Part shown: positions 2 through 46,237 of the stretch, in pieces
Position numbering within the stretch: position 1 is the first letter of the stretch
How the letters are laid out: every line of letters starts with the position of its first letter
Source of the DNA: an uncultured Clostridia bacterium
GTDB lineage: Bacteria; Bacillota; Clostridia; JAAYHZ01
Direction: 5' to 3'
Assembly: GCA_937894465.1 (NCBI GenBank)
Contig: CALCRE010000047.1
Coordinates: 2,208 to 66,207 of the forward strand
Length of the DNA stretch: 64,000 nucleotides
Notes under the pieces: generated by a model
The model's input: only the letters and a program-made list of their open reading frames with translations
Told to the model about the DNA's origin: nothing
Database searches by the model: none
Made by a program: the position numbers and the translations under genes

Positions 2-2077
2 GACATGCTCAACCTACCTGATTGTTGGTGCCCGAGTAATGATTGGATGAATACAGATTATTATTTGAAACATTTTTCCTATCAGCCCCGACCAGTACAA
101 ACCGCAATGTTGAATATACTTAAAAAAACGAACAATCCCGGTATAGTTATTCTTGAAGCTCCTATGGGTGAAGGAAAAACAGAAGCAGCGCTTGCTGCTG
201 CAGAATCAATGGCCTACACAACAAAGCGTAGTGGTATATTTTTTGCATTGCCGACTCAAGCCAGTGCTAACGGTCTGTTTTTACGAATTTGCCGTTGGAT
301 TGAAAAGTTAGGTGATGGTGTCGACCATTCGGTACAACTAGCACATGGTAAGGCGAACCTCAACGAGCTGTATAATTCTATAATTAAATCGACAAAAGAA
401 CAAGGTGCTTTTTGGGTAGGAGGCGAGGAAAGTGAAGGTACCGGAGATGATGCTATTATAGTTCATGATTGGTTTACCGGACGGAAAAAGGGTATCTTAG
501 CGGATTTTGTGATAGGCACTATCGATCAAGTCCTAATGGGTAGTCTTAAACAAAAGCATCTGGCACTACGTCATCTGGGACTTGCTAACAAAGTAGTGAT
601 TCTTGATGAATGCCACGCTTATGATGCTTATATGAGTCAATACCTGTATAAGGTTTTAAATTGGTTAGGAGCGTACAATGTTCCTGTGATTGTTCTTTCC
701 GCAACATTACCCGGTGACAAACGTAAGCAACTGATAGAATCCTACTTGAATCAAGACCCTTTAGTCGAACAAGAGTATGATCCGTTGTTTGATAATAATA
801 TTCATCAAGCCAAGTCGTTGCCTTCATGGGTTACCACTCTTGATTATCCGATCATTACATTGACGGATGGTTATAAAATTCTTCAAGAAAAGGTTCATGG
901 AAAACGACGTTCTATTAGTGTAGCGATAGATGTTTTATCGTCTGATGAGCAAATATTGACGATAATAGAAGATCTTCTATCTGATGGTGGATGTGCGGGG
1001 ATAATTGTAAATACCGTAAAAAAGGCGCAACAAATTGCGTGTTGCTTAAGAGAGCATTTTAATGAGGATTGCGTTTATCTGCTCCATTCTCGATTCATTG
1101 CTGCAGAACGTGCACAAAAAGAAAAAGTGTTGTTTGAAAAACTTGGTGCTGAGGGCAAACGCCCATATCGTTGCATAGTTGTCGGTACACAAATATTTGA
1201 ACAAAGTTGTGACTTGGATTTTGATGTGCTAATTTCTGATATTTGCCCTATGGAATTACTGATTCAACGCATTGGAAGATTACATAGACATAATCGGAAC
1301 AGACCGGACAAGCTACAAAACCCTGCTTGCTATATTTTGGGAATGAGTGAATCCGGATTTGATCGTGGTACTGAGTTAATCTATGGAAAATATCTGTTGA
1401 TGAATACACGAGCGTTGTTACCTTCTCAAATAAACTTACCAGATGATATTCCATTGCTTGTTCAAGAGACGTACCGTCCAGATGGACTAGCGATGCCACA
1501 GGCGTTATGTGATGAATATGAAGAAGCAAAAAGTTTACATGAAAGTCATATAGCTAAAAAACAAACAAAAGCAATGAATTTTCAAATTTCGGATCCATAC
1601 AAAGGTTTAGGTGATTTGGTAGGATGGTTGGATTCTAGTATAACTGAAGATCCATCTGGAAAGAGAGGTGAAGCAACTGTACGAGACACATATGATTCTA
1701 TCGAAGTTCTGGTTATACAACGCTGTAGTATGGGGTTCTATAAGATACCTTGGGGTACCAAATTTAGGAATGTTAAAATTCCTTATGATGTACCACCGGA
1801 ACCGGGGCTTGCAAAAGCAATAGCAGAATGTAGCATACAACTTCCTCACGAATTGTGTTGGGATATGGATAAGACAATCAAAGAACTTGAAAAAATTTCA
1901 CTACATGAATTACGAGCTTGGCAACAATCCAGTTGGCTCAAAGGTGAGTTGTTCTTGGTGCTCGATGATAAAAACAGTGCAGACCTTTGTGGATATTGCT
2001 TGCAATATGATGAGCTTTATGGATTATTATCAAATAAAATTGAAGAAGGGGATTTGAATGCAGGAAAAAGAATTTAA
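2..2077 (+). CDS. cas3: CRISPR-associated helicase Cas3 (type I-E), 5'-partial; only the helicase portion is in the window
   Basis: The reading frame is open to the window edge. Walker-A-like APMGEGKTEAAL, DExH-like LDECHAYD and the late helicase motif QRIGRLHRH are present. It is the first gene of a canonical I-E operon order. The expected N-terminal HD nuclease domain would lie upstream of position 1. Confidence 0.85.
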   Translation, partial: DMLNLPDCWCPSNDWMNTDYYLKHFSYQPRPVQTAMLNILKKTNNPGIVILEAPMGEGKTEAALAAAESMAYTTKRSGIFFALPTQASANGLFLRICRWIEKLGDGVDHSVQLAHGKANLNELYNSIIKSTKEQGAFWVGGEESEGTGDDAIIVHDWFTGRKKGILADFVIGTIDQVLMGSLKQKHLALRHLGLANKVVILDECHAYDAYMSQYLYKVLNWLGAYNVPVIVLSATLPGDKRKQLIESYLNQDPLVEQEYDPLFDNNIHQAKSLPSWVTTLDYPIITLTDGYKILQEKVHGKRRSISVAIDVLSSDEQILTIIEDLLSDGGCAGIIVNTVKKAQQIACCLREHFNEDCVYLLHSRFIAAERAQKEKVLFEKLGAEGKRPYRCIVVGTQIFEQSCDLDFDVLISDICPMELLIQRIGRLHRHNRNRPDKLQNPACYILGMSESGFDRGTELIYGKYLLMNTRALLPSQINLPDDIPLLVQETYRPDGLAMPQALCDEYEEAKSLHESHIAKKQTKAMNFQISDPYKGLGDLVGWLDSSITEDPSGKRGEATVRDTYDSIEVLVIQRCSMGFYKIPWGTKFRNVKIPYDVPPEPGLAKAIAECSIQLPHELCWDMDKTIKELEKISLHELRAWQQSSWLKGELFLVLDDKNSADLCGYCLQYDELYGLLSNKIEEGDLNAGKRI

Positions 2078-3653
2078 TTTATTATATGAACCATGGATTT
2101 TGGTGTTAACTCAAGAAGGTGAAACAAAGGAAGAATCCCTACTATCAGTACTAGAACATGCGCATGAGCTTCGCTGTATTTCCGGAGAGTTACCTACTCA
2201 GGACGTTGCTGTTTTGAGACTACTATTAGCCGTCTTACATGCGACTTTCACAAGAGTTGATGTGAAAGGAAATCAAGGGGGTATTAGTAATGCTATACAA
2301 GCATTAGAACGATGGGAAAATTTGTGGGAACTAAAGTGTTTTCCGGTAGAACCAATCAAAAAGCGTTTAATCTTCTATGAGGAACGTTTTTACCTTTTCC
2401 ATCCGGAGAGGCCCTTTTATCAGATCAGTGGCCTTAATTACGGGACAAGCTATACTGCAACGAAGCTATTGGGGAACCTATCCGAAAGTGGTAATAAAGT
2501 TAGGTTGTTTCCAGTTAGAACAGGGGATTCAAAACGTACAGTGTCATATGCCGAGGCAGCTAGATGGTTATTATATGTTAATGCTTTTGACGATACATCC
2601 GGTAAACCATCAAAACGAGGACAGAAAATGCCATCTCCCGGAGTGGGCTGGCTTGGTAAACTCGGATTGATTTATGCAGAAGGTTCAAGTCTTTTTGAAA
2701 CACTTATGTTGAACCTTGTGTTTTTAAATGATAAGAACGAGCCGTGGAGCAGTGGCAAAGCTACATGGGAAATTGATAAATCAAGAACAACGGAGCGGGT
2801 AGAAATTCCCTTACCCCAAGATCAAATTACATTACTTACATTACAATCACGCCGTTTACTCCTGCATCGAGAAGAGGGTAGCGTCAGTGGTTATTTGCTA
2901 CTAGGAGGTGACTTTTTTCCTAAAGAGAATTCGTTTACTGAACAAATGACACTCTGGAGAAAAGATCAAAAAAATGACATATATCATCCAAAACGTCACA
3001 ATCCGTCCAAACAATTATGGAGAGATTTCTCCTCACTTCTCGCAAGTAATAATGGCGCCAGAAAACCAGGTGTAGTTCATTGGTTATCATTATTGAAAGA
3101 TCATGATCTTATACGTAATAAGGTTATAATTAGTCTCCGTACTGCAAGTGTTAATTATGGAGATAAAGATTTCTTTGTAACTGATGTTTTTGAAGATTCT
3201 GTTTCAATCAATTCAAATATTCTGTCTCATCTTGGTGAGGAGTGGGTTATACGAATTATCAAGTTACTATCTGTCACTGAGGATTGTATAAGGTATATTG
3301 GTTATCTTGCCTCTGATTTGGCGATGGCTTGCGGTGACAGTGATAGCCAACATCATAAAGCCGGGGAAGGAAGCGGTAATGCTGCGAAGGCTGAAGCATA
3401 TTATCAAATGGACTTACCATTTCGAAAATGGCTTGCTGATATAAATCCGTCACAAACAGATCCGGATGAGGTAGAGCATGCTTGGAAGGAGACCGTAAGT
3501 CAGATACTCTTGAAACTCGGTGAAGAGATGGTGTATCGGACGGGAGAAAAAGGTATCACCGGTCGTTATGTCAATAATAGATACTATACTGCACCAAGTG
3601 CTTTGTTGAAGTTTCGTTCCAATGTAATACAAACATTAGAGAAAGGAGGTTAA
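2058..3653 (+). CDS. cse1: Cascade large subunit Cse1/CasA (Cas8e)
   Basis: 531 aa, with an N-terminal FNLLYEPWILV motif resembling the Cse1 N-terminus. Sits between cas3 and cse2 with a 20-nt overlap on cas3. Confidence 0.8.
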   Translation: MQEKEFNLLYEPWILVLTQEGETKEESLLSVLEHAHELRCISGELPTQDVAVLRLLLAVLHATFTRVDVKGNQGGISNAIQALERWENLWELKCFPVEPIKKRLIFYEERFYLFHPERPFYQISGLNYGTSYTATKLLGNLSESGNKVRLFPVRTGDSKRTVSYAEAARWLLYVNAFDDTSGKPSKRGQKMPSPGVGWLGKLGLIYAEGSSLFETLMLNLVFLNDKNEPWSSGKATWEIDKSRTTERVEIPLPQDQITLLTLQSRRLLLHREEGSVSGYLLLGGDFFPKENSFTEQMTLWRKDQKNDIYHPKRHNPSKQLWRDFSSLLASNNGARKPGVVHWLSLLKDHDLIRNKVIISLRTASVNYGDKDFFVTDVFEDSVSINSNILSHLGEEWVIRIIKLLSVTEDCIRYIGYLASDLAMACGDSDSQHHKAGEGSGNAAKAEAYYQMDLPFRKWLADINPSQTDPDEVEHAWKETVSQILLKLGEEMVYRTGEKGITGRYVNNRYYTAPSALLKFRSNVIQTLEKGG

Positions 3654-3654
3654 C

Positions 3655-4284
3655 ATGGAGGAAAGTAGGAATTTATCATACCTTATAAGGAAATTAACCG
3701 AGGAGAAGATCGAACGATTATTAATGGAAGATCCGTGGAGCCGTGCTATGCTAGCAAAATTGCGAAGAGGAATAGGGAAGCAACCGGGAGAACAACCGGA
3801 ACTATTTGAAATATTGCTTAATAATGTTCCGGAAGATCTATATGGGAAGGGTGACGAGGTCAGTAAACCCGTTTGGGCAATTTATACTGCATTGACATTG
3901 TTTGCACTACACCAGCAGGGTAACGAACAACCAATGAGTAATAGCGGTAATGCGGAGGGTAAAAAGCAGGGCAATTCTTTAGGTACTGCTGTCGGATACT
4001 TGGTAAAGAAAAATGATGAAGATCGAAAGAGTGCTGTAAAGCGCCGTTTTGATGCAGTGATAACCGCGAACGAATTTACTGAGTTTGCGTACCATGCGCG
4101 AAGTTTAATTCAATTGCTCAAAGCGGAGAAAATTACTTTAGATTATCCGCATTTGGCTGAGGACTTTTATTGGTACCAATTTGATGAAGTGAGAAATCGA
4201 ATTCGAATGCGCTGGGGCGAGGACTTTTATCGTATAGCGCAAAGGAATGATCATAAAGAAAACGGAGGAGTATGTAATGAGTAA
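3655..4284 (+). CDS. cse2: Cascade small subunit Cse2/CasB (Cas11e)
   Basis: 209-aa basic helical protein in the cse2 position, translationally coupled to cse1 and overlapping the cas7 start (ATGAGTAA). Confidence 0.7.
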   Translation: MEESRNLSYLIRKLTEEKIERLLMEDPWSRAMLAKLRRGIGKQPGEQPELFEILLNNVPEDLYGKGDEVSKPVWAIYTALTLFALHQQGNEQPMSNSGNAEGKKQGNSLGTAVGYLVKKNDEDRKSAVKRRFDAVITANEFTEFAYHARSLIQLLKAEKITLDYPHLAEDFYWYQFDEVRNRIRMRWGEDFYRIAQRNDHKENGGVCNE

Positions 4285-5362
4285 AATTAATAATCGGGTC
4301 TTTGTTGATATTCATGTTATCCAATCTCTGCCACCTAGTTGTGTCAACCGGGATGATACCGGTAGCCCGAAAACAGCAGTATATGGCGGTGTTCGCCGTG
4401 CAAGGATTTCGTCTCAATCTTGGAAACACGCTATGAGACAAATGTTTCGGGATTATTTTGATGAAATTGATCTGGGTGAAAGAACCAAAAAGATTGTTGA
4501 GAAAGTCGCAGAACAGATCCGTCTTTTATGTGAAATTGATTTGGAAGAAGCTATGACATTAGCTGAAAAAATCATTAACCAAACCGGGGTCGACACTAAA
4601 GACAAAGAGGCAAAAGCTCTCTTTTTTATGAGTAACAAACAAGCAGAGGCATTAGCACATATGGCTATTGTGGATCCTATTCCAAGTAAAAAAGAAGTAC
4701 AAGAAGCTTTAAATAAGGGTACAGGTGTAGATATAGCATTATTTGGACGTATGGTAGCTAATGATCCTGCTTTGAATGCAGATGCATCTGCGCAGGTAGC
4801 TCATGCGATTTCAACACACAAGGTAGAAAATGAATACGACTATTTTACTGCCATGGATGATCGTTCAGCAGAAGATCAGGCAGGTGCCGGTATGATCGGT
4901 ACAGTCGAATTTAATTCGTCTACTCTTTATCGTTATGCGACTGTTGCAGCTCATGATTTAAAAAAGAACCTTGGAGATGTAGCGATTTCCTCAAAAGCAA
5001 TCAAGGAATTTTTGCGAGCTTTTATATGTTCTATGCCCACCGGTAAGCAGAATACCTTTGCTAATAACACTCCGCCCTATGCAGTAATGGTGGCTATTCG
5101 CCAAGATCAGCCCATAAATTTTGTATGTGCTTTTGAGACACCGGTCAAGGCTAAAGAAGGTGGTTACCAGAGTAAGTCTGCAGTAGCATTAGCAAAGTAT
5201 GCGCAATTTGTTTATGATCGGTACTTTGCTGCACCAAAATATTCTTTTGTAATATCTATGGACAAGGAATTTGAAGGATTAGGTGATGCGGTCGAACTTC
5301 CCGATCTTTTAATTAAGGCAGAACAAATAGTGTACAAGCTCTTGCAAGAAAACGGGGTTTAA
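4277..5362 (+). CDS. cas7: Cascade backbone subunit Cas7e/CasC
   Basis: N-terminal VFVDIHVIQSLPPSCVNRDDTGSPK and GGVRRARISSQSWKH motifs match the CasC family. The start at ATG 4277 is preferred over ORF-track 4247 because of a GGAGGA ribosome-binding site 7 nt upstream. Confidence 0.85.
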   Translation: MSKINNRVFVDIHVIQSLPPSCVNRDDTGSPKTAVYGGVRRARISSQSWKHAMRQMFRDYFDEIDLGERTKKIVEKVAEQIRLLCEIDLEEAMTLAEKIINQTGVDTKDKEAKALFFMSNKQAEALAHMAIVDPIPSKKEVQEALNKGTGVDIALFGRMVANDPALNADASAQVAHAISTHKVENEYDYFTAMDDRSAEDQAGAGMIGTVEFNSSTLYRYATVAAHDLKKNLGDVAISSKAIKEFLRAFICSMPTGKQNTFANNTPPYAVMVAIRQDQPINFVCAFETPVKAKEGGYQSKSAVALAKYAQFVYDRYFAAPKYSFVISMDKEFEGLGDAVELPDLLIKAEQIVYKLLQENGV

Positions 5363-5364
5363 GC

Positions 5365-6087
5365 ATGAGTACATTATTACTACGATTAGCAGCACCTCTG
5401 CAATCTTGGGGCGTAGCAAGCAAATTTGACACTCGTGATACTGCAAGAGAACCGACCAAAAGTGGTGTGATTGGCTTGATTGCTGCAGCACTCGGTTGTA
5501 GTCGAACAGACAGTGGCGATGCCGCCAAGTGGCTTGAAAAGTTGAAAGATCTGAATTTTGCAGTACGAGTTGATCAAACCGGAGTGTTGTTGCGAGACTA
5601 TCATACAGCTAAGAAACTTAAGGACCAGACCTCCTTTGTCACCGTACGTTATTACTTAGCTGATGCGATTTTTCTAGTTGGCTTGGAGGGAGAAAAAAGT
5701 TTTTTGATGAAGCTTATGGAAGCATTACAAAATCCTGTTTTTCCTTTGTATCTTGGAAGGCGTTCTTGCCCTCCCACGGGCCGGATGGTTTTAGGAATAC
5801 GAGAACGGACACTTCAGCAAGCACTTGAGGAAGAATCTTGGCAAGCAAGTGAATGGTATCAAAAGAGAAAGTCATATCAAGCTAAGTTGACGATTGTTCG
5901 TGATGCAAAATCAAGTGAACAAGATGTCTTTTTAAGGAGAGATTTACCAATTTCTTTTGATCAAAGAAATCGCCGATATGGTTTTCGTTACGTGTCGGAC
6001 ATAGCTGAAGCGTTGTATGTATCGATACCTGAACGTGTTGCAGAGGAACCAACAGAGTGCGATGCAATGGAAGAATTGGAGGATTGA
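5365..6087 (+). CDS. cas5: Cascade subunit Cas5e/CasD
   Basis: N-terminal LLLRLAAPLQSWG...SGVIGLIAAALGCSR is the typical Cas5e glycine-rich signature. In the cas5 position. Confidence 0.8.
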   Translation: MSTLLLRLAAPLQSWGVASKFDTRDTAREPTKSGVIGLIAAALGCSRTDSGDAAKWLEKLKDLNFAVRVDQTGVLLRDYHTAKKLKDQTSFVTVRYYLADAIFLVGLEGEKSFLMKLMEALQNPVFPLYLGRRSCPPTGRMVLGIRERTLQQALEEESWQASEWYQKRKSYQAKLTIVRDAKSSEQDVFLRRDLPISFDQRNRRYGFRYVSDIAEALYVSIPERVAEEPTECDAMEELED

Positions 6088-6091
6088 TTAT

Positions 6092-6754
6092 ATGTATTTG
6101 TCTAGAATTGCGTTAAACACAAATAGAAAAGATACCATGACCGCTTTGGCTTCACCTCAGAAACTGCATGCAGCGGTGGAAAGCAGCTTTCCTCCAAGTG
6201 ATGAAAAAGCAAACCGAAATATTTGGCGCATTGATCGGTTAAACAATAATTTATATTTGCTTGTTCTCAGTGATAAGAAACCTGATTTTTTACATATAGT
6301 AGAGCAGTTTGGCTGGCCTGGCGCTGAGCAAAAGTGGGAAACCAAAGATTATACTATTTTGCTGGAGCGCATAAAAGAAGGTCAAACATGGCAGTTTCGG
6401 CTGAGAGCAAATCCGATACATCATGTAATAGCAAATGGTGAAACACAGACACAAGAAAAAAAGCAAAGAGGTAAGATTTATGCTCATGTCACAGAGGATC
6501 AGCAAAGCAAGTGGTTGCTAGATCGTGGAGAAAGATATGGATTTATGCTAAATGTTGACTCGTTTCGTGTTGTGCAACGAGACATAAAGAGATTTAAACA
6601 CCGTAATGGTTTTATAACATTGGGTATAGCTACGTATGAAGGGGTCTTGGAGGTTACGGATGTAACTTTGTTTCGAAATGCATTAATTAATGGTATAGGT
6701 CGAGCAAAAGCTTACGGGTGCGGTTTGATGACAATAGGTAAGGTGTCGACATGA
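6092..6754 (+). CDS. cas6e: crRNA endoribonuclease Cas6e/CasE
   Basis: Starts MYLSRIALNTNRKD (compare E. coli CasE MYLSKVII) with GGAGGA 8 nt upstream. The upstream in-frame ATG at 6017 would overlap cas5 by 70 nt and lacks a ribosome-binding site. The C-terminus carries the Gly-rich GIGRAKAYGCGLM motif. Confidence 0.8.
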   Translation: MYLSRIALNTNRKDTMTALASPQKLHAAVESSFPPSDEKANRNIWRIDRLNNNLYLLVLSDKKPDFLHIVEQFGWPGAEQKWETKDYTILLERIKEGQTWQFRLRANPIHHVIANGETQTQEKKQRGKIYAHVTEDQQSKWLLDRGERYGFMLNVDSFRVVQRDIKRFKHRNGFITLGIATYEGVLEVTDVTLFRNALINGIGRAKAYGCGLMTIGKVST

Positions 6755-7773
6755 GCGGTAATAGCGGAAAAATAAAGCCGAATCTTCAAGCTTTACCTGT
6801 TATTAAAGAACGAATCTCCTTCTTGTATTTAGAACGGTGTTTGGTTAATCGTCATGATAATGCTATTACAATAACAGATATCCGTGGTACAGTGTATGTC
6901 CCCGCCGCTGTTCTTTGTGTCATCATGCTAGGACCAGGCACAAATATCACACATCGCGCTATGGAACTCATTGGTGATACAGGAACTAGCGTTTTATGGA
7001 TCGGTGAACACGGAGTGCGCTATTATGCTCATGGGCGGCCATTGACGCACTCTGCTCGTTTACTGATACAACAGGCAGAACTGGTATCCAATACACGTAG
7101 CCGTTTAGCTGTTGCTCGCCGTATGTATTCTATGCGTTTTGAAGGTGAAGATGTCTCTAAGATGAGTATGCAACAATTACGAGGAAGAGAAGGTTCAAGG
7201 ATTCGCGCTGTTTACCGTGAGGCGTCTGATAAAACGGGAGTTCCTTGGAACAAACGAGAGTACGACCCTAATAATTTTACAGCAAGTGATCCTGTAAACA
7301 TGGCGCTATCCTCCGCACATGCATGCCTATACGGTGTGGCACATAGTGTTATCGTGGCATTGGGGTGCTCCCCGGGTCTTGGTTTTGTACATACAGGACA
7401 CGAGAGATCATTTGTTTATGATATCGCTGATCTCTATAAAGCAGAAATAACAATACCGATTGCATTTAAGGTTGCAGCACAACAACCGGAGGATATTGGC
7501 TCAGTGACCAGACGTGCTGTTCGTGATGCTATATCTGATGGTATGATTTTAGAACGCATGGTAAAAGATATTCGTGAGCTGATTTTAGGTTTTTCAGAAG
7601 ATGGTTCATCATTAGATGTTCCGGAAATTGAAACTAATATTATAAAACTATGGGACGAAAAGAATGGTTTTGTGAAAAATGCAGTTTCTTATGGAAAAGA
7701 ATTGGATGATATGGAATCCGAGATGATAGATTTTATTGAAGGTTACGGCACGTTTGTGGAGGAAGAGACATGA
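6751..7773 (+). CDS. cas1: CRISPR integrase Cas1 (I-E)
   Basis: Strong similarity to E. coli Cas1 (YgbT) throughout (ISFLYLERC, LGPGT, FVHTGHERSFVYDIADLYKAE). Start overlaps the cas6e stop (ATGA). Confidence 0.9.
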   Translation: MSGNSGKIKPNLQALPVIKERISFLYLERCLVNRHDNAITITDIRGTVYVPAAVLCVIMLGPGTNITHRAMELIGDTGTSVLWIGEHGVRYYAHGRPLTHSARLLIQQAELVSNTRSRLAVARRMYSMRFEGEDVSKMSMQQLRGREGSRIRAVYREASDKTGVPWNKREYDPNNFTASDPVNMALSSAHACLYGVAHSVIVALGCSPGLGFVHTGHERSFVYDIADLYKAEITIPIAFKVAAQQPEDIGSVTRRAVRDAISDGMILERMVKDIRELILGFSEDGSSLDVPEIETNIIKLWDEKNGFVKNAVSYGKELDDMESEMIDFIEGYGTFVEEET

Positions 7774-8654
7774 TAGTCATATCTTTAGCGGATTGTCCTG
7801 TCAGTTTGCGTGGTGATCTTACAAAATGGTTGATGGAAATAAGCGCAGGAGTATTTGTCGGACAAGTCAGTGCACGAGTTCGAGATCATCTATGGGAACT
7901 TATTAAGAAAACGGCCAAGAATGGTAAAGCGATAATGGTATTCAATACTAATAACGAGCAACGATTGGATTTCCGTGTTTATAATAATACGTGGGAGCCT
8001 ATTGATTTTGATGGTATAAAGTTGATGCTTCGACCTAGCCCTTCTCGGATTAAGCATTTAAGTGAACTCCGTTTAGGTTATAGTAAAGCAAGTAAAAGAC
8101 AGATAGCGAAGCAAGCTGCCAATAAACAAAGTTCCAATTTACCTGGTTCATATGTTGTAGTAGATGTTGAAACAAGTGGACTTAATCTAGAAGAACATAA
8201 AATAATTGAGATCGGAGCAATTCGTGTAGAAGATCATTGTATAGCAGAACGATTTTCTTTACTAGTGCGACTAGAAGAAGCTATTCCAACACAAATAGAA
8301 GAGCTAACAGGCATTACGAACGATTTATTACAAAAAGAAGGTATTGACATAGAAATTGCCTTAAAACAATTCATCTCCTTTGTACGTGATTTACCCATGG
8401 TATCCCATAATGCGGATTTCGACTATAGATTCCTACGCAAAGCATGCGACGATTGCAATATTTCATATATCGGCAATAGGTGCTTCGATACACTAACACT
8501 TGCCCGAAGGAAAATTAGGCAGATTGACAATTTCAAGTTGAGTACGCTAGCAAATTATTTTGGAATTGTAATTGCGAAACAACATCGAAGCATTGATGAC
8601 TGTGAAATAACCTATCAAATCTATGAGAAACTCATTAATTTAGACAAATTTTAA
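7770..8654 (+). CDS. cas2: Cas2 fused to a DnaQ-like DEDDh 3'-5' exonuclease domain
   Basis: The N-terminal ~95 aa has the Cas2e fold pattern (MIVISLADCPVSLRGDLTKWL...). The C-terminal domain carries Exo I VVDVETSG, Exo II SHNADFDYRFL and Exo III HRSIDDCEITYQI motifs of the DnaQ/epsilon family. Start overlaps the cas1 stop. Confidence 0.85.
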   Translation: MIVISLADCPVSLRGDLTKWLMEISAGVFVGQVSARVRDHLWELIKKTAKNGKAIMVFNTNNEQRLDFRVYNNTWEPIDFDGIKLMLRPSPSRIKHLSELRLGYSKASKRQIAKQAANKQSSNLPGSYVVVDVETSGLNLEEHKIIEIGAIRVEDHCIAERFSLLVRLEEAIPTQIEELTGITNDLLQKEGIDIEIALKQFISFVRDLPMVSHNADFDYRFLRKACDDCNISYIGNRCFDTLTLARRKIRQIDNFKLSTLANYFGIVIAKQHRSIDDCEITYQIYEKLINLDKF

Positions 8655-8660
8655 AACTGA

Positions 8661-8688
8661 AACTGGCTTCACAGGCCAGTTTTCTTAG
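8661..8688 (+). terminator. Hairpin (AACTGGC-7 nt-GCCAGTT) followed by a T-rich tract between the cas2 stop and the first CRISPR repeat
   Basis: Seen directly in sequence: a 7-bp stem and TTTTCTT tail. It sits where a leader would be expected, so it could be a terminator or a leader structural element. Confidence 0.4.
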
Positions 8689-8689
8689 T

Positions 8690-11098
8690 GTGTTCCCCGC
8701 GCATGCGGGGGTGATCCTTGCTTTTCCTCCGAAAACCAGGATCCATTAGTGTGTTCCCCGCGCATGCGGGGGTGATCCTATCATAAGTTACGTACTTTTG
8801 CAAGCATGTTTGTGTTCCCCGCGCATGCGGGGGTGATCCTATTGTGATCCCGAATGGCAAGCTGATGCTTTAGTGTTCCCCGCGCATGCGGGGGTGATCC
8901 TAAAAGGTGACCTACTTCATGGGCAATCGTAAAGTGTTCCCCGCGCATGCGGGGGTGATCCTAGCCGATTGAAATTACATTACGGCATTATCAAGTGTTC
9001 CCCGCGCATGCGGGGGTGATCCTGTGTCGGTGTTCGGTGTCTTGGATCTTGACCAGTGTTCCCCGCGCATGCGGGGGTGATCCTAAAGCATCCAAAGCTT
9101 CCGGCAAAGCATCTACGTGTTCCCCGCGCATGCGGGGGTGATCCTTTCTGACCGACAATTGGAAACTATTAGAAGCAGTGTTCCCCGCGCATGCGGGGGT
9201 GATCCTTACTGAAGAAATAATATTACATTTGTGTTACAGTGTTCCCCGCGCATGCGGGGGTGATCCTGCAGACATTGATTGATCGGCATGGAGGTAACTG
9301 TGTTCCCCGCGCATGCGGGGGTGATCCCTTTTTCTTTAGCCCAAAGTTTCACAACATCTTGTGTTCCCCGCGCATGCGGGGGTGATCCTTATCTTCGGGT
9401 TCCCCGTATGAATCTCTGCCGGTGTTCCCCGCGCATGCGGGGGTGATCCTGAATGACGTTTTTCAGAAGAAGAACAACGAGGGTGTTCCCCGCGCATGCG
9501 GGGGTGATCCTGAATGACGTTTTTCAGAAGAAGAACAACGAGGGTGTTCCCCGCGCATGCGGGGGTGATCCTTGGTCGTACTGGATCTGGTAAAACATAC
9601 GGAGGTGTTCCCCGCGCATGCGGGGGTGATCCTTAATGACAACGGATGGAAAGTTTTAAAACTTGTTGTTCCCCGCGCATGCGGGGGTGATCCGTATCCG
9701 GATATGCCGTTTGTTACGGCAATAATGTGTTCCCCGCGCATGCGGGGGTGATCCTTTGGATTAGACTATGAAAAAAGTGTCATAGAGGTGTTCCCCGCGC
9801 ATGCGGGGGTGATCCTGATGGAAAAGGATAAAAACACGTTAGACGAAAGTGTTCCCCGCGCATGCGGGGGTGATCCTGTTGGCATTCTGTGCAATCAAAT
9901 GGTGATCTGGTGTTCCCCGCGCATGCGGGGGTGATCCTACTACGACACAGATCACTTAGAAAAGGTTAAAGTGTTCCCCGCGCATGCGGGGGTGATCCTC
10001 GTCCCGGATCAGTTTGTAAGCCCCTAAATACGTGTTCCCCGCGCATGCGGGGGTGATCCTACTTTACAGTGAAATTTGCTGTTATAACGATAGTGTTCCC
10101 CGCGCATGCGGGGGTGATCCCAAATAAGTTGGTTTTTTTGTATCTCGTCCACAAGTGTTCCCCGCGCATGCGGGGGTGATCCTAACCCGAATATCAACTG
10201 AAACCAAGAAATACCGTGTTCCCCGCGCATGCGGGGGTGATCCTAAATCTTAACGGAGGTAATTTAACATGACGTAGTGTTCCCCGCGCATGCGGGGGTG
10301 ATCCCCATGCTCTGTTTTGGTAGTTTTCGCATGTTTCGTGTTCCCCGCGCATGCGGGGGTGATCCTGGTACCGATCATCATAACAGAAAAACAAAGACGT
10401 GTTCCCCGCGCATGCGGGGGTGATCCTTGAAATAGATTCTTTCCTTTTTTTTCTTCAAGTGTTCCCCGCGCATGCGGGGGTGATCCCAAAACATACAGAG
10501 GTATTATACAGATTTTGATGTGTTCCCCGCGCATGCGGGGGTGATCCTAGTTGCCTAACGTGATCTCATTCCTCGGTATAGTGTTCCCCGCGCATGCGGG
10601 GGTGATCCTATATCTTCATCAAGTGCGTTTGCATCACCTGTGTGTTCCCCGCGCATGCGGGGGTGATCCGTACAGCCCAAGAGAAATCGGATCCGAAAAG
10701 GCGTGTTCCCCGCGCATGCGGGGGTGATCCTAATGGGTATTTATAAAGGTAATGTAAGATTAAGTGTTCCCCGCGCATGCGGGGGTGATCCTACGGTTAG
10801 CCGGTCCGATAAAACCGGCGTTAGGTGTTCCCCGCGCATGCGGGGGTGATCCTAAACCCCTACTAACGGTTTAGCAATGCGTTATGTGTTCCCCGCGCAT
10901 GCGGGGGTGATCCTTAACCGGTTGCAAGGGCAGTTGGTTAGTGCATGTGTTCCCCGCGCATGCGGGGGTGATCCCTCGGGAGCATACAATCTTATATTTT
11001 CCAGAAGGGTGTTCCCCACTCATGCGGGGGTGATCCTGTCTGTATTATGTAGTGAGTAGGCATCCCCGTGTGTTCCCCGCGCATGCGGGGGTGATCCC
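8690..11098 (+). CRISPR. Type I-E CRISPR array: 40 repeats of 29 bp (GTGTTCCCCGCGCATGCGGGGGTGATCCT) and 39 spacers of 31-33 bp
   Basis: Repeats were read directly at a 61-bp period from 8690 to the last repeat at 11070-11098. The repeat is palindromic (CCCCGCGC/GCGGGGG) and ends GTGATCC, like firmicute I-E repeats. Read 5'->3' on the + strand it begins with the canonical I-E GTGTTCCCCGCGC head. The minus-strand ORFs the track lists across this region are artefacts. Confidence 0.97.
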
Positions 11099-11352
11099 TC
11101 CTGCAGCTCCAACCGTAAAGTAAAGAGTAAGCTTGCAAAACGAGGACTTCCAACGGAGGTTTTAAAAGTTATGCCTGAAAGAAGGTATCAGGTGACATCG
11201 TTATATGCTAAGTATCTTACCTGCGAAAGATGAAAAGAAAATTCGATAAATTCTGCATTTTTTCAGATACAATTGTTAATATATCACATACAAACAGAAA
11301 TAGTATCGAAATAATAAATTAGACTATTCAAGCAGATTGAAGCTGATAATTA

Positions 11353-11382
11353 TTGACTTATGTTTTAACCTAATAGTATGAT
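11353..11382 (+). promoter_or_regulatory. Candidate sigma-A promoter (TTGACT-18 nt-TATGAT) for the giant surface-protein gene
   Basis: Hexamers read in the AT-rich gap 120 bp upstream of the GTG/ATG start at 11500-11506. A GGGGGG ribosome-binding site lies 9 nt before the start. Confidence 0.35.
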
Positions 11383-11499
11383 ATGGATAGATATTTTATG
11401 GTCAAAAAAATTGTATACATAAAAAGTGAAGGCCAAAAGGACTAAAAGGATAATTATCTATATAGATAAATAAAAAAATAAAAATGGGGGGTACATATT

Positions 11500-14400
11500 G
11501 TGAAGATGTTAAAGAAAATCACAAGTATCATTCTAGCCTCTGTTATGTGTTTCACAAGTATGTCTGATCAACTGTTGGGTTTTACTGTAACTTCAACTGT
11601 ATATGCAGAAGGAAGTTCGGCAACGGTTAATATCTGTTACGACAACTTCGCCGATACAACGAATTTACAAGTAAACGGCGATATGATTGAAAATAATATC
11701 TTACGCTTTGTAAATGAAGGAGTCCCTGAAAGTATATTTACAAAAGATGCGATTGTTTTAGGTGAGAACCTTTCTTTTAGTACGGCTTTTTCTTTCAAAA
11801 ACCTCTCGCCTTCAGAACCCGCTCCGCAAACAAAGGGCGGTTTTATCTTCACACTGCAACCGATTGGAAACTTCGTTACGACGGATGATTTTCAACATAA
11901 TAATATTTCACCTGCAATTAGTATAGCTTTCGAATTTGAATATATTGATGCTTTTATACCTACAGCATTTAGTCCGTCAGTAAAATTAGAGAGCTCTTCT
12001 AGCACTGACTTTTTGATAGCCCAAGAAGCCCCCCCGAAACTTTGCAGTATCAATATGGTTACATATATCAACGGTGACTATGCTAACCCTATATCCCGGC
12101 ACCCTTTGACGACATATTATGTAACCGCTGAGATTGCTGAATATGATCATGTATGGATCGGATATGACGGTGTCAATAAGGAGCTTGAGATTTTGTATGT
12201 TGACCCTTCCGGTAAATATACACATATTACGGAACCGTTGGATCTTGTTTTACCAAATGAAGTGTATGCAGGTTTTATGGGTTCTTTCGGAAATGCCGGA
12301 AACACAAATACGATCAACAGCTGGTATTTTAAAGATGACTTGTCCATTATGGATCAAGGTATAGTGGATGCCGACATGGCTTTTCTAAATCTTGAGATGG
12401 AACAACTTGAAGTTGATTCTATTGATAATTATACATTTCCTCTTTGCGGGCATTTCGGGAGCACCATCAGTTGGACATCAAGCAATATGGGTGTGGTGGC
12501 AACAGACGGGACTGTAAATCCTCCCTCAATTGGGGAAGGGAATAAAACAGTGATACTAACTGCGGCATTATCGAAGGGGTTACAGGTACGGACGACAAGA
12601 CCGTTTATGATAACAGTCAGAGTACCGGATGTTGTAATTGTCAATGCAGATTTTGAATGGTTAACCGATTTCATTATAAAGAAGAATAACGACGATTTAA
12701 ATCATGTTGTTTCAAACTTGAACCTTCCTACCTTAGGTAATTTCGGAAGCGTGATCAGTTGGGAGTCTAATGATACGGTCATATTAAATTGGGATGGAAC
12801 GGTAAATAGACCTGCTTATAACGAAGTTGATAAGACGGTTACCCTTACTGCTCATATAACAATGAATTATTATACATTAGATAAGACATTCACTGTTACG
12901 GTAAAAGCTATAGAACCAACTGATGAAGAAAAATTGAATGCTGATGCTTCCTGGTTGAATTTATATATGTTGAATGAGGATTTAAGTGATGTAACTTCAG
13001 ATTTAACTCTTCCGGATACAGGTCCTTCCGGAAGTACCATCAGCTGGGCATCTAATAATACGACAGTCTTGAATGCTGACGGGACTGTAGCAAGACCTGC
13101 ATACACAGCAGGGAATGTTGTGGTTACACTGACAGCAACAATCAGCAAGGGTGTAGAAACTACTGATCTCGTATTTACTGTAACAGTCATAAAGCAAGCT
13201 CAAACTGATGTAGAAGCAGTATCTGCTGATGCCGCATTACTAACAGATGCTGTGATCTTAAATGGAAATAGCGCACTGAACAATGTTATGGGTCATTTAA
13301 CTTTACCTACTCTTGGTGCAAACGGGAGTACCATCAGCTGGACCTCCAATAATACAACAGTTTTGAATACAGACGGGACTGTGACAAGACCTGCATACAC
13401 AGCAGGGAATGTTGTGGTTACACTGACAGCAACAATCAGCAAGGGTGTAGAAACTACTGATCTCGTATTTACTGTAACAGTCATAAAGCAAGCTCAAACT
13501 GATGTAGAAGCAGTATCTGCTGATGCCGCATTACTAACAGATGCTGTGATCTTAAATGGAAATAGCGCACTGAACAATGTTATGGGTCATTTAACTTTAC
13601 CTACTCTTGGTGCAAACGGGAGTACCATCAGCTGGACCTCCAATAATACAACAGTTTTGAATACAGACGGGACTGTAGCAAGACCTGCATACGCGGCAGG
13701 GAATGATGTGGTTTCACTGACAGCAACAATCAGCAAGGGTGTAGAAACTACTGATATCGTATTTACTGTAACAGTCATAAAGCAAGCTCAAACAGATGCC
13801 GAAGCGGTATCTGCTGATGCGACATTGTTAACAGATAATGTGATCTTAAATGGAAATAGCGCACTGAACAATGTTACAGGTAATTTAAGCTTACCTACTC
13901 TTGGTGCAAACGGAAGTACGATCAGTTGGGCATCGAATAATACGACAGTTTTAAATGCTGACGGGACTGTAACAAGACCTACATACACAGCAGGAAATAT
14001 TGTTGTTACACTGACAGCAACCGTCAGCAAGGGTACAGAAACTACTGATGTTGTGTTTACTGTAACAGTCATAAAGCAAACACAAACCGATGCAGAAGCA
14101 GTATCTGCCGATGCGACATTGCTGACAGATGACGTAATCTTAAATGGAAATAGCGCACTGAACAATGTTGTGAATAATTTAAGCTTACCTACTCTTGGTG
14201 CAAACGGAAGCACCATCAGCTGGGCATCTGACAATACGACAGTCTTGAATGCTGGCGGGATTGTAACCAGGCCTGCATACACAGCAGGGAATGTTGTTGT
14301 TACGCTGACAGCAACGGTTAGCAAGGGAGTAGAAACTACTGATGTTGTGTTTACTGTAACGGTTATAAAACATGAACAAACAGATGCAGAAGCGGTATCT

Positions 14401-17400
14401 GCTGATGCCGCATTGCTAACAGATGATGTGATTTTAAATGAAAATAGCGCACTGGATAATGTTACGGGAAATTTAATCCTCCCTGTTCTTGGTGCAAACG
14501 GGAGCACCATCAGTTGGGAATCCAATAATACGACATTCTTGAGTAATGACGGGACTGTGATTAGACCTTCCTATACTGCAGGTAGCAAGACCGTTGTTAT
14601 TACCGCTACCATTAAAAAGGGAGTTGTTACTCAAACAAAATCTTTTGGATTGACGATAAAAGCTTCGGATATTACCGATGAAGAACGTGTATCATTAGAT
14701 TATGCATGGTTAACCAAATACAATGTATTAGAGCTCAATCCTTCGATAAATTCTGTAGAGTGGAATCTTTCATTCCCTGTAGCCGGTCCGAACAATTCTG
14801 TTATTACTTGGGAGTCAGATATGCTTTCGGTTATTACTAATGACGGTACCGTCATTCGACCGGAATATGGGCAGGGGCATAAATCGGTCAATGTCACAGC
14901 AACTGTAACAAAAGGGATTTTTCAACGAAAAGCACACTACATCTATGTGGTTTTACAAAAACCTGATCTGGAAGCTCCTATGGTGGTAAGCTCACTACCT
15001 TTTAATAACGGAAGAGCACTCTATGATACAAAGGAAATCACATTGGTATTCAATGAAAACATTATTTTAGGGCCTGCTGCTTTGAGTAATCCGAATACAT
15101 ATGGAATAAAGCTTCAAGGAACCGATACTGTTTTGTTCCGTGCAGCTATAGAGAATGAAAACAAGCTTATTGTATCAACAACTTCCGGTTTAAGTGCAGG
15201 GGAATACAAGCTAATCATTCCGGCGGGTACTTTTGTTGACAAAGCCGGTAATCAGACAAAAGCTTATGAATTAATCTTTATGGTTTCCCCGAAACCGGGA
15301 AAATTAACGGTTGTCTCCTCAACACCGAAAGACCTTGAAGTGGATGTAGATGTGAATATAAGAGAAATCCTCATTCAATTTGATTCCACTAATCTTGTAC
15401 GAAATACTAGCTCCATTCCAATATTTTTAAGGGAGAAAACAACTAAGATTAGTCGCTCAAGCTCTTTTTCAGTCACAGGGGATACGGTCACTTTGAGGAT
15501 ACCGGCACCTCTTTCTTCAGGATTGGTATATGAAATAGTCATACCCGGGGGGATTGTCAAAGATTCGAATAACAACATCAATGAAGAAAAAATCATTCAG
15601 TTTAGGACGAAGTATTCCGGAGCAAAGCCGGTGCTTGTGAAAACCAAACCTGTGAACGGGCAAATGAATGTTAGTTTAAATGATGTTAGTATTGAATTAG
15701 AGTTCTCGCAGAATATTGATTTTTTGACTCTGACGAATTATATAACTTACCTTGTGGATGACCAAGGAAATAAGTACAATTTTATGCCGTATAAAATTGG
15801 AGGAAGCTCAAAAAGGTGGAAGCTAACAACTCCCCACTTAAGTCATTATAAACAGGGTACAACATACACTTTAGTGGGTCCTTACGGTACTTTGGAAAAC
15901 CCGGATTTATTGGAATTCAATGTTCAATTTACAACAGCTTCAAATCGAATGCAGGTAGTTAACAAGTCTCCGAAGTCTTGGTTAGGAAATCCTTTGGATC
16001 AAAAAGTAGAAATTGAATATAACTATCCTGTGGAAATCGGTCCGACCTATTGGGACGTCACTTTCAAGGATTCAAAAGGAAATCCCGTTGACTTTATTAG
16101 GGAAGAGATCGGGAAAAAGGTAACTTTCACACCCATCTCATTACTATCACCGTCTGAAACCTATACGGTAACCATTCCTGAAGGCGCATATAAAGGAGAA
16201 AGTGGATATATAAACGACGGGATTCAGTTTGATTTCCGAACCGTCCAAAAGTTTGATATTAGTATCAATAACCTGATCATTCCGGATCAGGGGTTTGTTG
16301 ATAAGATCCTTTTATTCGATGCAGCTGAAGCTGGAAACATTGCCAGAAGAGCAGGGTCAAATGTCTCATCTTATGAGTGGAACATTGACGGGAAAGTAAT
16401 CGGAAATCAAAAATATGTGTATTATACATTCATTTCTCCGGGTATTCATAAGCTGACCCTTACCATCATCGATGACAAGAACATTCCTTATGTTTTCGAA
16501 AAAGACATCACTGTGAACCACTTGACTGATATAAGGATGACTTTAAAAGACAATGGTTATTCTCCCCGCGGTGTATTTTTAGCGGATCAAAATTCTAAGG
16601 GTATTGTATATAAACTTCAATTGACACAAGAAGGCAAAACCGTTTATGGTGAGAAAATTGATGTGGAACTATACTATAAAGGTGTGTTACAGCGACGATA
16701 CAACAAAATCACATCAAAATTTGGAGATGACACGTATCTATTTGAATTTAAACCGGAATTCGGAGCTTTTGGCAACTATGAGTTGGTGTTTACCTATCAA
16801 GGTGTCGGATATAAAGAGGTGATTCGAGAACCTGTGGTTGTTTCATCTTCCCAGGCTACCATGACTCAAGTATTCTCGTTTCGATTGAGAGACATTTTTG
16901 CATGGAATAGTCCTGAATATTTTGAGGAAGCTCAAAACCTTCAGGTGATCATCAATGGAGAAAAGATGCTTGCATATAAAAAGTGGGATTCTCAGCGTGG
17001 ATATTATGTCTATCAAATCAACAAGATGATGTTGGCAAATACCTACTATCAAATGGAAATTCCTTCTTTTAAGATTGATCGTTGGATTAAGTCTATTTAT
17101 GTCGGAAAAGAAGGATCGGATCCTACCGTTATATCCGGATGGCCTTTAAGACCCGGAGGTATTCAAGAAATCAGTGTTAATTACGATGAAAGCTCTGTGC
17201 TTTATCCTTTCACCGAATTCTATTTTGAAGGTGTATCCGCAAAGCTGGTATTTGATGTGGAAGCAGATTGGAAAGAGGCAGAACCCGGATACTATGAAAT
17301 CAAGTCAATGAATGATCGGTTCAATATAAAAGTTCGCTCTAACGGAAGCGGTGTTCAGAAGATTGTTCTTGATCCGGGATTGGAGTTGAAACCGGGAGAA

Positions 17401-20400
17401 AATTTGGTCATTCGAATGGTATCCAAGCAAGGTGCGGCATCCGGTTGGATATACTGCCCCTATTTCGTTGTAGTTCCTCAGCCTGAGATTTTAGGGCAAA
17501 AGCTGTCCATATCCCTTCAAAGTGGGGAATACGCAGTAAACTGGCCTAACGAGTTTACCGGTGCTTTAGGTAGTAAAATAAGTATGTTTGACGGTGTTCC
17601 GGTTTTGGATGGCGGGAACTTCGGCATTGGCGGCGGTATGCCTACATTCGAGGGTGATCTCGAAGGTGATTGGGCGAATCCCGAAATTAACCTTTCTTTT
17701 GGGGCTAGCGGAGGATATGGAGAAAAGAGTAAAAAGAAAGCAGATACTAAATACAAAAAGGTGAAGAAAGTCACCACGGTAGGTTATGAATTTAGCATTG
17801 AGATTGAAGGTGCATTCACCCTTACATATGATTCACAGAGTAAAGAATGGGATATGTATGGATTCTATATTATGTTGATCGGTGACTTTATCAAAGAGTG
17901 GTCCAAAGGATACGACATGATGGGTGTGGGATTCTCCGCAGGAGTTGGTGTCGGAGGTGAAGTCGCCGGAGGATTGAAGGTGGATATGGCAACCGACGAC
18001 ACCCAATACAGCGGATTTATAAGGATCACACCACGTGCTTTTCTCAGGGTATCGGGAGACTTTTTGGTGGCTTCTGTGAATGGGTATTTGAATGGTTGGA
18101 TTCCGGTTGAAGTACACTTTCCCACCGGATATATCGGTGCAGACATCCAAATCAGTGCTAAAATTCACGCAAAAGCACTATTATGGTCGAAGACAATCTA
18201 TGAAAAGAATCTGCTATCAGAGCATTGGGATAATGGAAAGCCCCAGGTTGTTATCAAGTCTTTAAAGAACTTTAAAATGTTTGAAGACCCTGATACTTTC
18301 CAATTGATGTCTAGGGACTATATCAACAGGCAATCCGTTTGGGCAGCACAGGATAGCGGTTTGGTCAGTGTTATGGCTGTTGGATTTAATGAAAACCCGG
18401 ATACTGAACTAATGATGGAAAACATGTATCCTGATGCTGAACTTATGATGGTAGAAAACCAAGATGAGTTATGGCTTGTATGGACAGATGACAATGCCGA
18501 AAGGGATGATGCAAATCGAACTCAATTACGTTTTGCAGTTCAAAGCAACGGCACATGGAGTAAGCCTGTGTGGATCCACGATGACAAAACAGCTGATTTT
18601 GCTCCCGTTGCAGCAAGTACTGGAAACGGTGTGCTCATGGCATGGCAAAACATCGGGAAACACATTACCGAAGAAGATGGCTTATCCGAAATGTTGAAAA
18701 ACTCCGAAATCAGTGTCACTCAAACCGGTTATACATCCACCGGGGTGGCACCGAATATTATCACACTGACAAGTGATGATGCTGTGGATCACTCTCCCCA
18801 TATTGCAGCACATGGTGATCAGGCATTGCTGGTTTGGACGAAATCAACCGGATTAACCACCGTATTGAATGCAGGAGAAGACCAGCCCGGAAAAGATGAT
18901 CATCGTTTATACTATTCTGCTTGGAACAACGGTGTCTGGAGTACCCCGGAAGCCATTTCAAGTGTGTCCGAAACTGTAATGGATGCTCATTTGGTTATGG
19001 AAGGGGAAACCGGCTTGCTGCTATATACATTAGATATGGATCAGGATCTGTATACCACAGAAGACAGAGAAGTTTTTGTAAGACTTTATGAGAGAAATGC
19101 TTGGAGTGATGCAATTCGGCTCTCAAATAATTCTTATCATGATTGTGCTCCGAAAGCTGTGTTTGTAGAAAGCAATTGGTTCATTACGTGGTTACAAGAA
19201 GGAAACATCCTGTACAGATACGGTTTAGACGGAGATATAAAAGATGAAGAACGATTGCAAAATATTCAAGGGGATTATCAAATTGCTGTTGTTCCGGGTG
19301 AAAAGCCCCTGGTTTCTTTAGTTCATATCAAGCCCGGTGAGGATATGACAACCGGTGCTCATGCTTTCTTCTATGACTTAACATTAGAACAATGGGGTAA
19401 TTCCGTTGCATTGTCGGATTTAGAAAACCATGTGAAAGCGATCAGTTTGGTTTCTACCCAAGATGGAAATATAAATGTTGCATATACCCAAGCTGACATC
19501 ATCACAGAGGCAAATCCTATAGTGATTGAAGGTGTGAAGCAATTTGTGGAAACCCCTGCAATCGGAAATCAGACGGATATGAAGTTGTTGACATATACAC
19601 CGGTTCATGATGTAGCCCTTTCTAAAGAAGATGGAATATTGCTCTCCACGGAATTCCCGTTGCCTGAAATTTTAACTTCTGTTTATGTAACTGTGCAAAA
19701 CCAAGGAGATTATGCAGAGTACGTGAAAGTACGAATTTATGACGGGGATCCTAACGAACAAGGAGTACTCATCGGTGAAACTCCCATGCAGTTACTCCCT
19801 GCACATACATCGAAAGAGTTGGAGATCCCTTGGCTGGTAGACACCGAAGAAAAAGCCACTTATCACTTGTACGCAACAATAGAGCCTCAATTCGGTGTGC
19901 AGGAGATCAATGTTGGGAACAACACCATTGATTTGGCATTTTCTACTGCAGATATTGCAATTACCGATTTGATATATGAAAACATGGTGGCGGATGAATA
20001 TGTAGTGACAGTTACTGTAACTAATACCGGAGGAAAAACCTTGGATGGTGCAACGGTGAATTTAGAAAGTGATGTTGATGGAACCGTTTTAGAGACTAAA
20101 TCACTTGGGGTTCTCGCACCCGGACAGCGGACTGTTGTAACTTATATGATTTCATCAGAAGGTTTGCCCCTAGGAACAGATGGAAAAGTCAACCTACTTG
20201 TTCGTGTCAACCCATCGGAGGGTATCACAGAGGATTTCACAGAGAACAATATGAGAAGGTTTTCACTGAAACCTACAGCAATTACCGTTACAGGAGTAAG
20301 CCCCGGGCCGAAAGACAAAAATGTTGCATTGACAAGTAACATAACACTATCATTTAACATGAATGTTTCCGAAGGCACCGGGTATGACCGCATCCGGTTA

Positions 20401-26061: not shown

Positions 26062-26168
26062 CATAAAAACAAAAGAAAATAAAAGGTATCGCACGATATA
26101 TTGATTTAATACGTGCGATATGATATGATGATCGTATGATAATAAAACTAATCGTACGGGGTGATGTT

Positions 26169-39003: not shown

Positions 39004-39028
39004 TTCGGAATTTCAAGGAGGTATTACT

Positions 39029-46090: not shown

Positions 46091-46237
46091 GCGGGGAACA
46101 GCTTGCATATTTTTGGGTGCTGTTTAAACTGCAGCTTGTTTTTTGTTGAGAACCGTCCCTATCACATTTCTACAGTATGATAATTCGATATTAACATATA
46201 CTACCTAACAATAGAAAAATTGAAAAGGAGTATACTG

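Follow-up and report, generated by a model that had tools for sequence, protein, structure and literature searches.

Cas2 is fused to a DnaQ-like DEDDh exonuclease domain in two described type I-E CRISPR-Cas systems (clustered regularly interspaced short palindromic repeats and their associated proteins). One is the Megasphaera NM10-related Cas1-Cas2/DEDDh 'trimmer-integrase' (Wang et al., 2023, Nature; PDB 8FY9-8FYD; PMC10284694), and the other is CRISPR4 of Streptococcus thermophilus, whose adaptation module pairs cas1 with a cas2-dnaQ fusion (Tang et al., 2023; PDB 8HI1, 8H18; PMC10470216). In both homologues, prespacer 3′ ends are trimmed under the guidance of a ruler, the fused exonuclease removes the protospacer adjacent motif (PAM) with a delay, and Cas1 integrates the product; mutational evidence from both ties the fused exonuclease domain to prespacer trimming and PAM removal (PMC10284694; PMC10470216). 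The Cas2 of Escherichia coli, in contrast, is a stand-alone protein of 94 aa that depends on host DnaQ-family exonucleases (PMC10470216). Here we describe one further natural Cas1-Cas2/DEDDh system, found in 64,000 nucleotides of DNA from an uncultured Clostridia bacterium (contig CALCRE010000047.1, positions 2,208 to 66,207), a stretch hereafter called the window. With a probability of roughly 0.93, we read the locus as a complete-looking CRISPR-Cas locus of type I-E that has been used, and that belongs to the subgroup whose Cas2 carries a fused DnaQ-like DEDDh 3′-5′ exonuclease. Loci of this kind have already been described, and in other respects this one is ordinary.

Gene content and the Cas2-DEDDh fusion

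Eight consecutive open reading frames (ORFs) on the + strand, spanning positions 2-8654, encode cas3 (partial), cse1, cse2, cas7e, cas5e, cas6e, cas1e and cas2e-DEDDh, and a CRISPR array follows them. The gene order and families are identical to those of E. coli K-12 (cas3-casABCDE-cas1-cas2), which differs in having a Cas2 without the fusion. The features of the locus, including the gene for the endoribonuclease of precursor CRISPR RNA (pre-crRNA), are as follows.

2-2077, + strand: cas3 (type I-E Cas3), 5′-truncated by the window edge; Pfam DEAD, Cas3-like_C_2 and Cas3_C; NCBIfam PRK09694 and cas3_core; PADLOC Cas3e (E 7e-163)
2058-3653, + strand: cse1/cas8e, large Cascade subunit, 531 aa; PF09481 (E 1.6e-95); TIGR02547; PADLOC Cas8e (E 1e-94)
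3655-4284, + strand: cse2/cas11e, small Cascade subunit, 209 aa, a separate gene; PF09485 (E 3e-36); TIGR02548; PADLOC Cas11e (E 2.5e-55)
4277-5362, + strand: cas7e, Cascade backbone, 361 aa from the ATG at 4277; PF09344 (E 3.5e-120); TIGR01869; PADLOC Cas7e (E 1.5e-120)
5365-6087, + strand: cas5e, 240 aa; PF09704 (E 1e-44); TIGR01868; PADLOC Cas5e
6092-6754, + strand: cas6e, pre-crRNA endoribonuclease, 220 aa from the ATG at 6092; PF08798 (E 3.5e-67); TIGR01907; PADLOC Cas6e
6751-7773, + strand: cas1e integrase, 340 aa; TIGR03638 cas1_ECOLI (E 1e-109); PDB 8hi1_A (E 4e-116) and 8fy9_B (E 2e-114)
7770-8654, + strand: cas2e-DEDDh fusion, 294 aa, a single 885-nt ORF; PF09707 and PF00929; PADLOC Cas2e and Cas-associated DEDDh; PDB 8fy9_A
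8655-8689, + strand: compact leader and leader-repeat junction, 35 bp, ending in GGCTTCACAGGCCAGTTTTCTTAGT directly before repeat 1
8690-11098, + strand: CRISPR array, 40 repeats and 39 spacers (38 unique); 28-nt repeat plus a mostly-T 29th base

The fusion protein consists of Cas2e (residues 1-85), a linker (~86-126) and a DnaQ-like 3′-5′ exonuclease (127-290), with Pfam placing PF09707 at residues 1-85 and PF00929 (RNase_T/DEDDh) at 129-285. Its Cas2e part scores 59.5 bits with TIGR01873 against a cut-off of 33.15, and the fusion matches the curated PADLOC model of Cas-associated DEDDh at E 8e-34. The best solved-structure match is Megasphaera Cas2-DEDDh (8fy9_A; E 6e-53 over residues 1-288, 37% identity), which has the same Cas2e-linker-DEDDh architecture in 289 aa. 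As had been claimed in a first-pass annotation of the window, Cas2 carries a full DEDDh domain with motifs Exo I-III intact: all five catalytic residues are present, namely D132 and E134 (Exo I), D218 (Exo II), and H272 and D277 (Exo III), and each lines up with its counterpart in 8fy9_A, 8h18_A and 2p1j_A. D132 occupies the same position as the residue mutated in the D132A variant of the Megasphaera study. The DEDDh domain also matches the DnaQ of 8h18 (E 2e-27). We take 8hi1 and 8h18 to be S. thermophilus structures from the subject of PMC10470216; the PDB table used here carries no organism. The same annotation had stated that Cas2-DnaQ fusions trim prespacers in firmicute type I-E systems such as that of S. 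thermophilus, which is documented (PMC10470216; for Megasphaera, PMC10284694), and from these homologues we infer prespacer 3′ trimming and PAM removal by the fused domain of the window locus.

Cas1e scores 365.9 bits with TIGR03638 against a cut-off of 215.6, retains the catalytic residues E147, H214, D224 and D227, and has its best PDB match in 8hi1_A. Residues Y126, Q141, G148, K168 and Y171 are conserved at numbering identical to that of Megasphaera Cas1 (8fy9_B). In the Megasphaera protein, Y126, G148 and Y171 hold the PAM-complementary TT, while K168 and Q141 are placed at the leader-repeat junction (PMC10284694). The two systems differ in that their Cas2-DEDDh proteins are only ~37% identical, the window Cas1 is ~24 aa longer at its C-terminus, the host lineage is another one, and the window system is known from its sequence alone. 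The S. thermophilus system, too, comes from another organism and has another repeat stem-loop sequence.

Each Cas ORF was scanned against Pfam, NCBIfam and PADLOC. All eight proteins exceed the curated Pfam/NCBIfam cut-offs and match PADLOC models of subtype I-E; among the NCBIfam I-E equivalogs, every one is above its curated cut-off except the whole-protein Cas3 model, which a truncated cas3 cannot reach. The signature large subunit Cse1/Cas8e scores 138.7 bits with TIGR02547 (cut-off 70) and Cse2/Cas11e 132.5 bits with TIGR02548 (cut-off 28.5), and Cas7e, Cas5e and Cas6e, encoded in the order cas7-cas5-cas6e, all pass with TIGR01869, TIGR01868 and TIGR01907. The canonical order of all eight I-E genes given in the first-pass annotation therefore stands, at nearly the positions proposed there and with the families above their cut-offs; profile hidden Markov models of type I-E matched cse1, cse2, cas7, cas5 and cas6e strongly (E 1e-25 to 1e-120).

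For two genes we depart from the longest ORF. The ATG at 4277 for cas7 (longest-ORF start 4247) and that at 6092 for cas6e (longest-ORF start 6017) are probably the likelier starts, because each lies behind a GGAGG and coincides with the start of the family profile; in cas6e, PF08798 begins at residue 26 of the long ORF, and position 1 of PADLOC Cas6e is residue 1 counted from 6092. With these starts, the junctions cas3/cse1 (20 nt), cse2/cas7 (8 nt), cas6e/cas1 (4 nt) and cas1/cas2 (4 nt) overlap, and the other three of the seven are gaps of 1-4 nt. The reading frames are uninterrupted and tightly packed, as annotated previously, but the overlap of starts and stops that had been described for the whole operon applies to four of the seven junctions. 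No extra ORF lies between cas3 and the array and no Cas4 family occurs among the Pfam matches of the neighbouring genes, the region upstream of cas3 being beyond the window.

The 691 aa of the Cas3 fragment align to positions 283-764 of the 878-position model PRK09694. Helicase motifs I (GEGKT56), II (DECH202), III (SAT233) and VI (QRIGR422) are intact, and the fragment retains both its helicase and its C-terminal domains; it has no HD domain, and this nuclease part (~250 aa) would lie before window base 1. In the closest relatives (L003 and L008, Pelotomaculum and Peptococcaceae metagenome-assembled genomes (MAGs), 71-72% identity), Cas3 is 944-967 aa long with an N-terminal Cas3_HD, and the window Cas3 is therefore short by ~250 residues. 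The earlier caveat that cas3 runs off the window, leaving its HD domain beyond confirmation, was right, and attempts at extension retrieved no HD domain. An exact-protein look-up with Cse1 returned an identical copy on two short contigs only (GCA_003504795.1 DNZH01000248.1 and one ENA contig), neither yielding the HD domain; the exact 294-aa Cas2-DEDDh product was absent from the contig index, and a 24-nt probe from the 5′ end of the window had zero matches in the metagenome collection.

The array and its phage targets

The repeat, GTGTTCCCCGCGCATGCGGGGGTGATCC (28 nt), occurs in 40 copies within 8690-11097 at a period of 61 nt, with 0 copies expected in shuffled sequences; this is the number of repeats counted in the first-pass annotation. 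Thirty-seven of the 40 copies are exact and three have 1-2 mismatches, with variant repeats at 9666 (repeat 17, one substitution) and 11009 (repeat 39, two substitutions). Spacers are 33 nt long in 36 of 39 cases, 34 nt in two and 32 nt in one. Spacers 13 and 14 (9450-9482 and 9511-9543) are identical (TGAATGACGTTTTTCAGAAGAAGAACAACGAGG), the repeat-spacer unit having been duplicated. Folded as a 29-nt unit, the repeat is predicted to form a 7-bp stem with a 4-nt loop and a 7-nt 3′ tail (-13.2 kcal/mol), and this predicted hairpin geometry is as expected for processing by Cas6e. An Rfam scan matched nothing in the array region. Self-targeting was rejected: even with 7 mismatches allowed, the spacers have no match in the rest of the window. 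The repeat was found in 17 metagenome contigs, none of which (0/17) shares spacers or flanks with the window.

The array resembles those of the described systems. E. coli K-12 has the same 61-nt repeat-spacer period, the same repeat core (GTGTTCCCCGCGC..GCGGGG) and hairpin, and a 5′-side PAM that likewise begins with AA. The repeat of S. thermophilus CRISPR4 presumably shares with that of the window its 3′ end (GGGGGTGATCC) and its length of 28 nt, together with a spacer length of 33 nt. Megasphaera shares the AA PAM and the 33-bp spacers.

Eight spacers were searched singly in IMG/VR, and all spacers were then re-scanned against the loci fetched. Six of the eight single-spacer scans gave no match. 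Perfect matches were found for spacer 6 (9023-9055) in IMGVR_UViG_3300029822_000071 and for spacer 7 (9084-9116) in IMGVR_UViG_3300029822_000434, and the re-scan placed spacer 28 (10366-10398), with one mismatch, on the opposite strand of IMGVR_UViG_3300029822_000434. A search of the whole array against GenBank phages returned only other CRISPR-like repeats. The protospacers lie in a virion structural gene with holin, endolysin and integrase genes nearby, and in a tape-measure gene adjoining that of the major tail protein; the targets are therefore tailed phages, and one of the two is marked as temperate by its integrase. Spacers 7 and 28 both fall in the same tape-measure gene, on opposite strands and ~1 kb apart (1713-1745, - strand, and 2731-2763, + strand, of locus L101). 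Either primed acquisition or more than one encounter with the phage could account for two spacers on one tape-measure gene.

When the array is read as +, 5′-AA lies directly upstream of all three protospacers. An AA PAM (TT on the complementary strand) is reported for the Megasphaera system (PMC10284694), and AA is the PAM known for the S. thermophilus/Megasphaera subgroup, to which the three protospacers conform. These three protospacers with the appropriate motif show real past acquisition, i.e., that the locus has been used, and they back the earlier suggestion that the system acquires spacers or formerly did so. The base after the 28-nt repeat, which is the first base of the spacer (8718-11069), is T in 32/39 cases, C in 5/39 and G in 2/39, and T also follows the AA in all three protospacers. 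This T may derive from the PAM or be a favoured +1 base, perhaps a third PAM position that enters the array with the spacer, in analogy to the G of the AAG PAM in E. coli.

The position of AA on the 5′ side in the + reading fixes the direction of array transcription as +. The perfect matches lie near the cas2 end and the mismatched spacer 28 deeper in the array, which is consistent with a leader on the cas2 side. We also considered, and rejected, that the array is inverted and led by the AT-rich region 11100-11500: the repeat orientation is that of E. coli I-E, AA is found 5′ only in the + reading, and the spacers with perfect matches are at the cas2 end. The AT-rich region itself holds promoter-like sites, which precede a gene for a 3543-aa surface protein.

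Related loci and the compact leader

Scanning species-representative genomes with the window Cas3 fragment yielded 80 related I-E loci, mostly in Clostridia and Negativicutes MAGs from anaerobic habitats, with the nearest cas3 relatives in Pelotomaculum, Syntrophomonas and Peptococcaceae MAGs. The Cas2-DEDDh fusion is the norm in this Firmicutes clade, because ~39 of the ~48 related loci that reach cas2 carry DEDDh in frame after Cas2. Four loci come from archaeal MAGs (L030, L032, L058 and L070; Methanomethylophilaceae and Methanomassiliicoccales) and are of type I-E, with Cas3 proteins 40-46% identical to that of the window. Two of them (L030 and L032) encode a Cas2 of 275-277 aa whose C-terminal part was unmatched by the DEDDh query at E 1e-5, and which could be a diverged or a different fused domain.

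The stop codon of cas2-DEDDh (8654) and repeat 1 (8690) are separated by only 35 bp, the one feature of the locus that is somewhat out of the ordinary. Among the fused relatives (loci L003-L082), the corresponding gap is 20-51 bp in 27 of 32, and in six related loci without a detectable DEDDh it is 94-1024 bp; both are raw counts that ignore kinship. The last ~25 nt before the repeat contain a junction motif, GGCGT..ATT..GGGAT..TTTTTAGT, that is common to 32 related loci, the window version of which is GGCTTCACAGGCCAGTTTTCTTAGT. The leader of E. coli I-E is much longer than 35 bp and contains its own promoter and a site for integration host factor (IHF). No sigma-70-like promoter was called in 8200-8690. 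A promoter for the pre-crRNA inside the cas2-DEDDh coding sequence and co-transcription of the array with the operon are the two possibilities. As a candidate terminator between cas2 and repeat 1, we evaluated an 8-bp hairpin (AAACTGGC/GCCAGTTT), which was not supported: its stability does not differ significantly from that of shuffled sequences (z = -1.6), the terminator scan did not call it, and it is not conserved in the relatives.

We tentatively propose, while considering it rather doubtful, that type I-E loci of the Cas2-DEDDh branch have had their leader compressed to ~30-45 bp that hold only the conserved junction motif. The upstream functions of an E. coli-type leader (promoter and host-factor bending site) would then either reside within the 3′ part of the cas2-DEDDh coding sequence or be dispensable.

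Proposed operation, alternative readings and surroundings

We infer the enzymatic activities and the transcription of the array, step by step, from the homologous systems of S. thermophilus and Megasphaera. A Cas1(4)-Cas2/DEDDh(2) complex would capture fragments of phage DNA, with the Cas1 pocket (Y126, G148 and Y171) holding the complement of the 5′-AA PAM. The tethered DEDDh domain would trim the 3′ overhangs to the ruler length and at a later point take off the PAM, and the 33-bp product would be integrated at the leader-proximal repeat next to cas2. The array would be transcribed on the + strand, and Cas6e would cut each repeat after the hairpin. Cascade (Cse1, Cse2, Cas7, Cas5 and Cas6e with the CRISPR RNA) would find AA-flanked protospacers and recruit a Cas3, complete with its expected HD domain, for degradation of the target.

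Several points weigh against this reading. The HD domain of Cas3 lies outside the window and was not recovered for the genome, so that the sequence verifies competence for interference only in part; no sigma-70-like promoter was called ahead of the array, which begins only 35 bp after cas2; three of the 39 spacers were traced, eight having been searched in the viral collection; and the metagenome contigs yielded no further sample of this strain in which ongoing acquisition might have been seen. An inactive relic, whose genes look intact but which neither acquires nor interferes, be it through damage to the part of cas3 upstream of the window, through silencing of the operon or in some other way, would fit the unseen HD region and the missing promoter call, and also the duplicated spacer-repeat unit, the two variant repeats and the failure of most tested spacers to find a match. 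Silencing of this sort occurs in E. coli K-12, where H-NS represses the cas operon. All eight frames are nevertheless open with their catalytic motifs intact, 37 of the 40 repeats are identical, and two spacers near the leader have perfect, correctly PAM-flanked matches in phage contigs, which speaks for acquisition that was recent and functional. We consider a relic improbable.

Another reading denies the DEDDh domain a part in adaptation, making it an exonuclease of general proofreading or repair that happens to be fused, or an appendage whose catalysis is irrelevant. The closest non-Cas relatives of the domain are indeed PolC- and DinG-type exonuclease domains, and its activity is predicted from the amino acid sequence only. 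However, the in-frame fusion is conserved in ~39/48 related I-E loci, the protein matches both the Cas-associated DEDDh model and a full-length solved Cas2-DEDDh with all catalytic residues, and mutants of the homologues link the domain to the trimming of prespacers and the removal of the PAM (PMC10284694; PMC10470216), so that we regard this reading as very improbable. An assembly or frameshift artefact that joined separate cas2 and dnaQ-like genes is scarcely credible: nothing specific speaks for it apart from the absence of the exact 294-aa product from the contig index, while the gene is a single 885-nt ORF without a stop, Cas2 and DEDDh matches share one frame in dozens of independent assemblies, and length and architecture equal those of the solved 289-aa protein. 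A used type I-E system with a Cas2-DEDDh trimmer-integrase is the reading that we retain.

Outside the CRISPR locus, the window is ordinary chromosome, with transporters, regulators and resistance-type genes among others, and its G+C content is ~40% throughout, rising only over the GC-rich repeats. Downstream of the array (11500-22131, + strand), the 3543-aa ORF encodes nine aBig_2 and six Big_5 (Ig-like) domains with C-terminal SLH domains, and is presumably a giant S-layer-anchored surface protein; it contains a tandem repeat at 13029-14558 (5.2 copies of 294 bp, or 98 aa, at 89% identity). A putative Imm5-like immunity protein (25522-26061, + strand) is followed by a 263-aa protein combining a Phd/YefM antitoxin with a putative Uma2 endonuclease (26136-26927). 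At 34575-36520 (+ strand), a gene with a match to sigma-70 region 2 overlaps the start of a gene for a 463-aa bacterial serpin, and this overlap suggests that the two are co-expressed. At 38703-41407 (+ strand), the gene for an 802-aa class I aminoacyl-tRNA synthetase is directly preceded by a T-box leader (RF00230, 117.5 bits). Further genes encode a large-subunit catalase whose C-terminal domain is DJ-1/PfpI-like (46220-48355), a member of the streptomycin adenylyltransferase family (50067-50906) and a beta-lactamase-family protein adjoining a divergent pair of BlaR1/BlaI (53118-57064); a DDE transposase is encoded at 59818-61437.

The value of the locus is mostly one of annotation. Its confirmed AA PAM and traceable targets connect an uncultured anaerobe with a pair of phage contigs, of which one carries an integrase. 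In vitro work on the Megasphaera system left the specificity for the leader side unexplained and invoked an unknown host factor (PMC10284694). A leader of 30-45 bp common to the fused clade would narrow where the leader-side determinant can lie. If the upstream leader functions are dispensable, read-through from the cas operon would supply the array transcript, and the short junction motif alone would specify leader-proximal integration.

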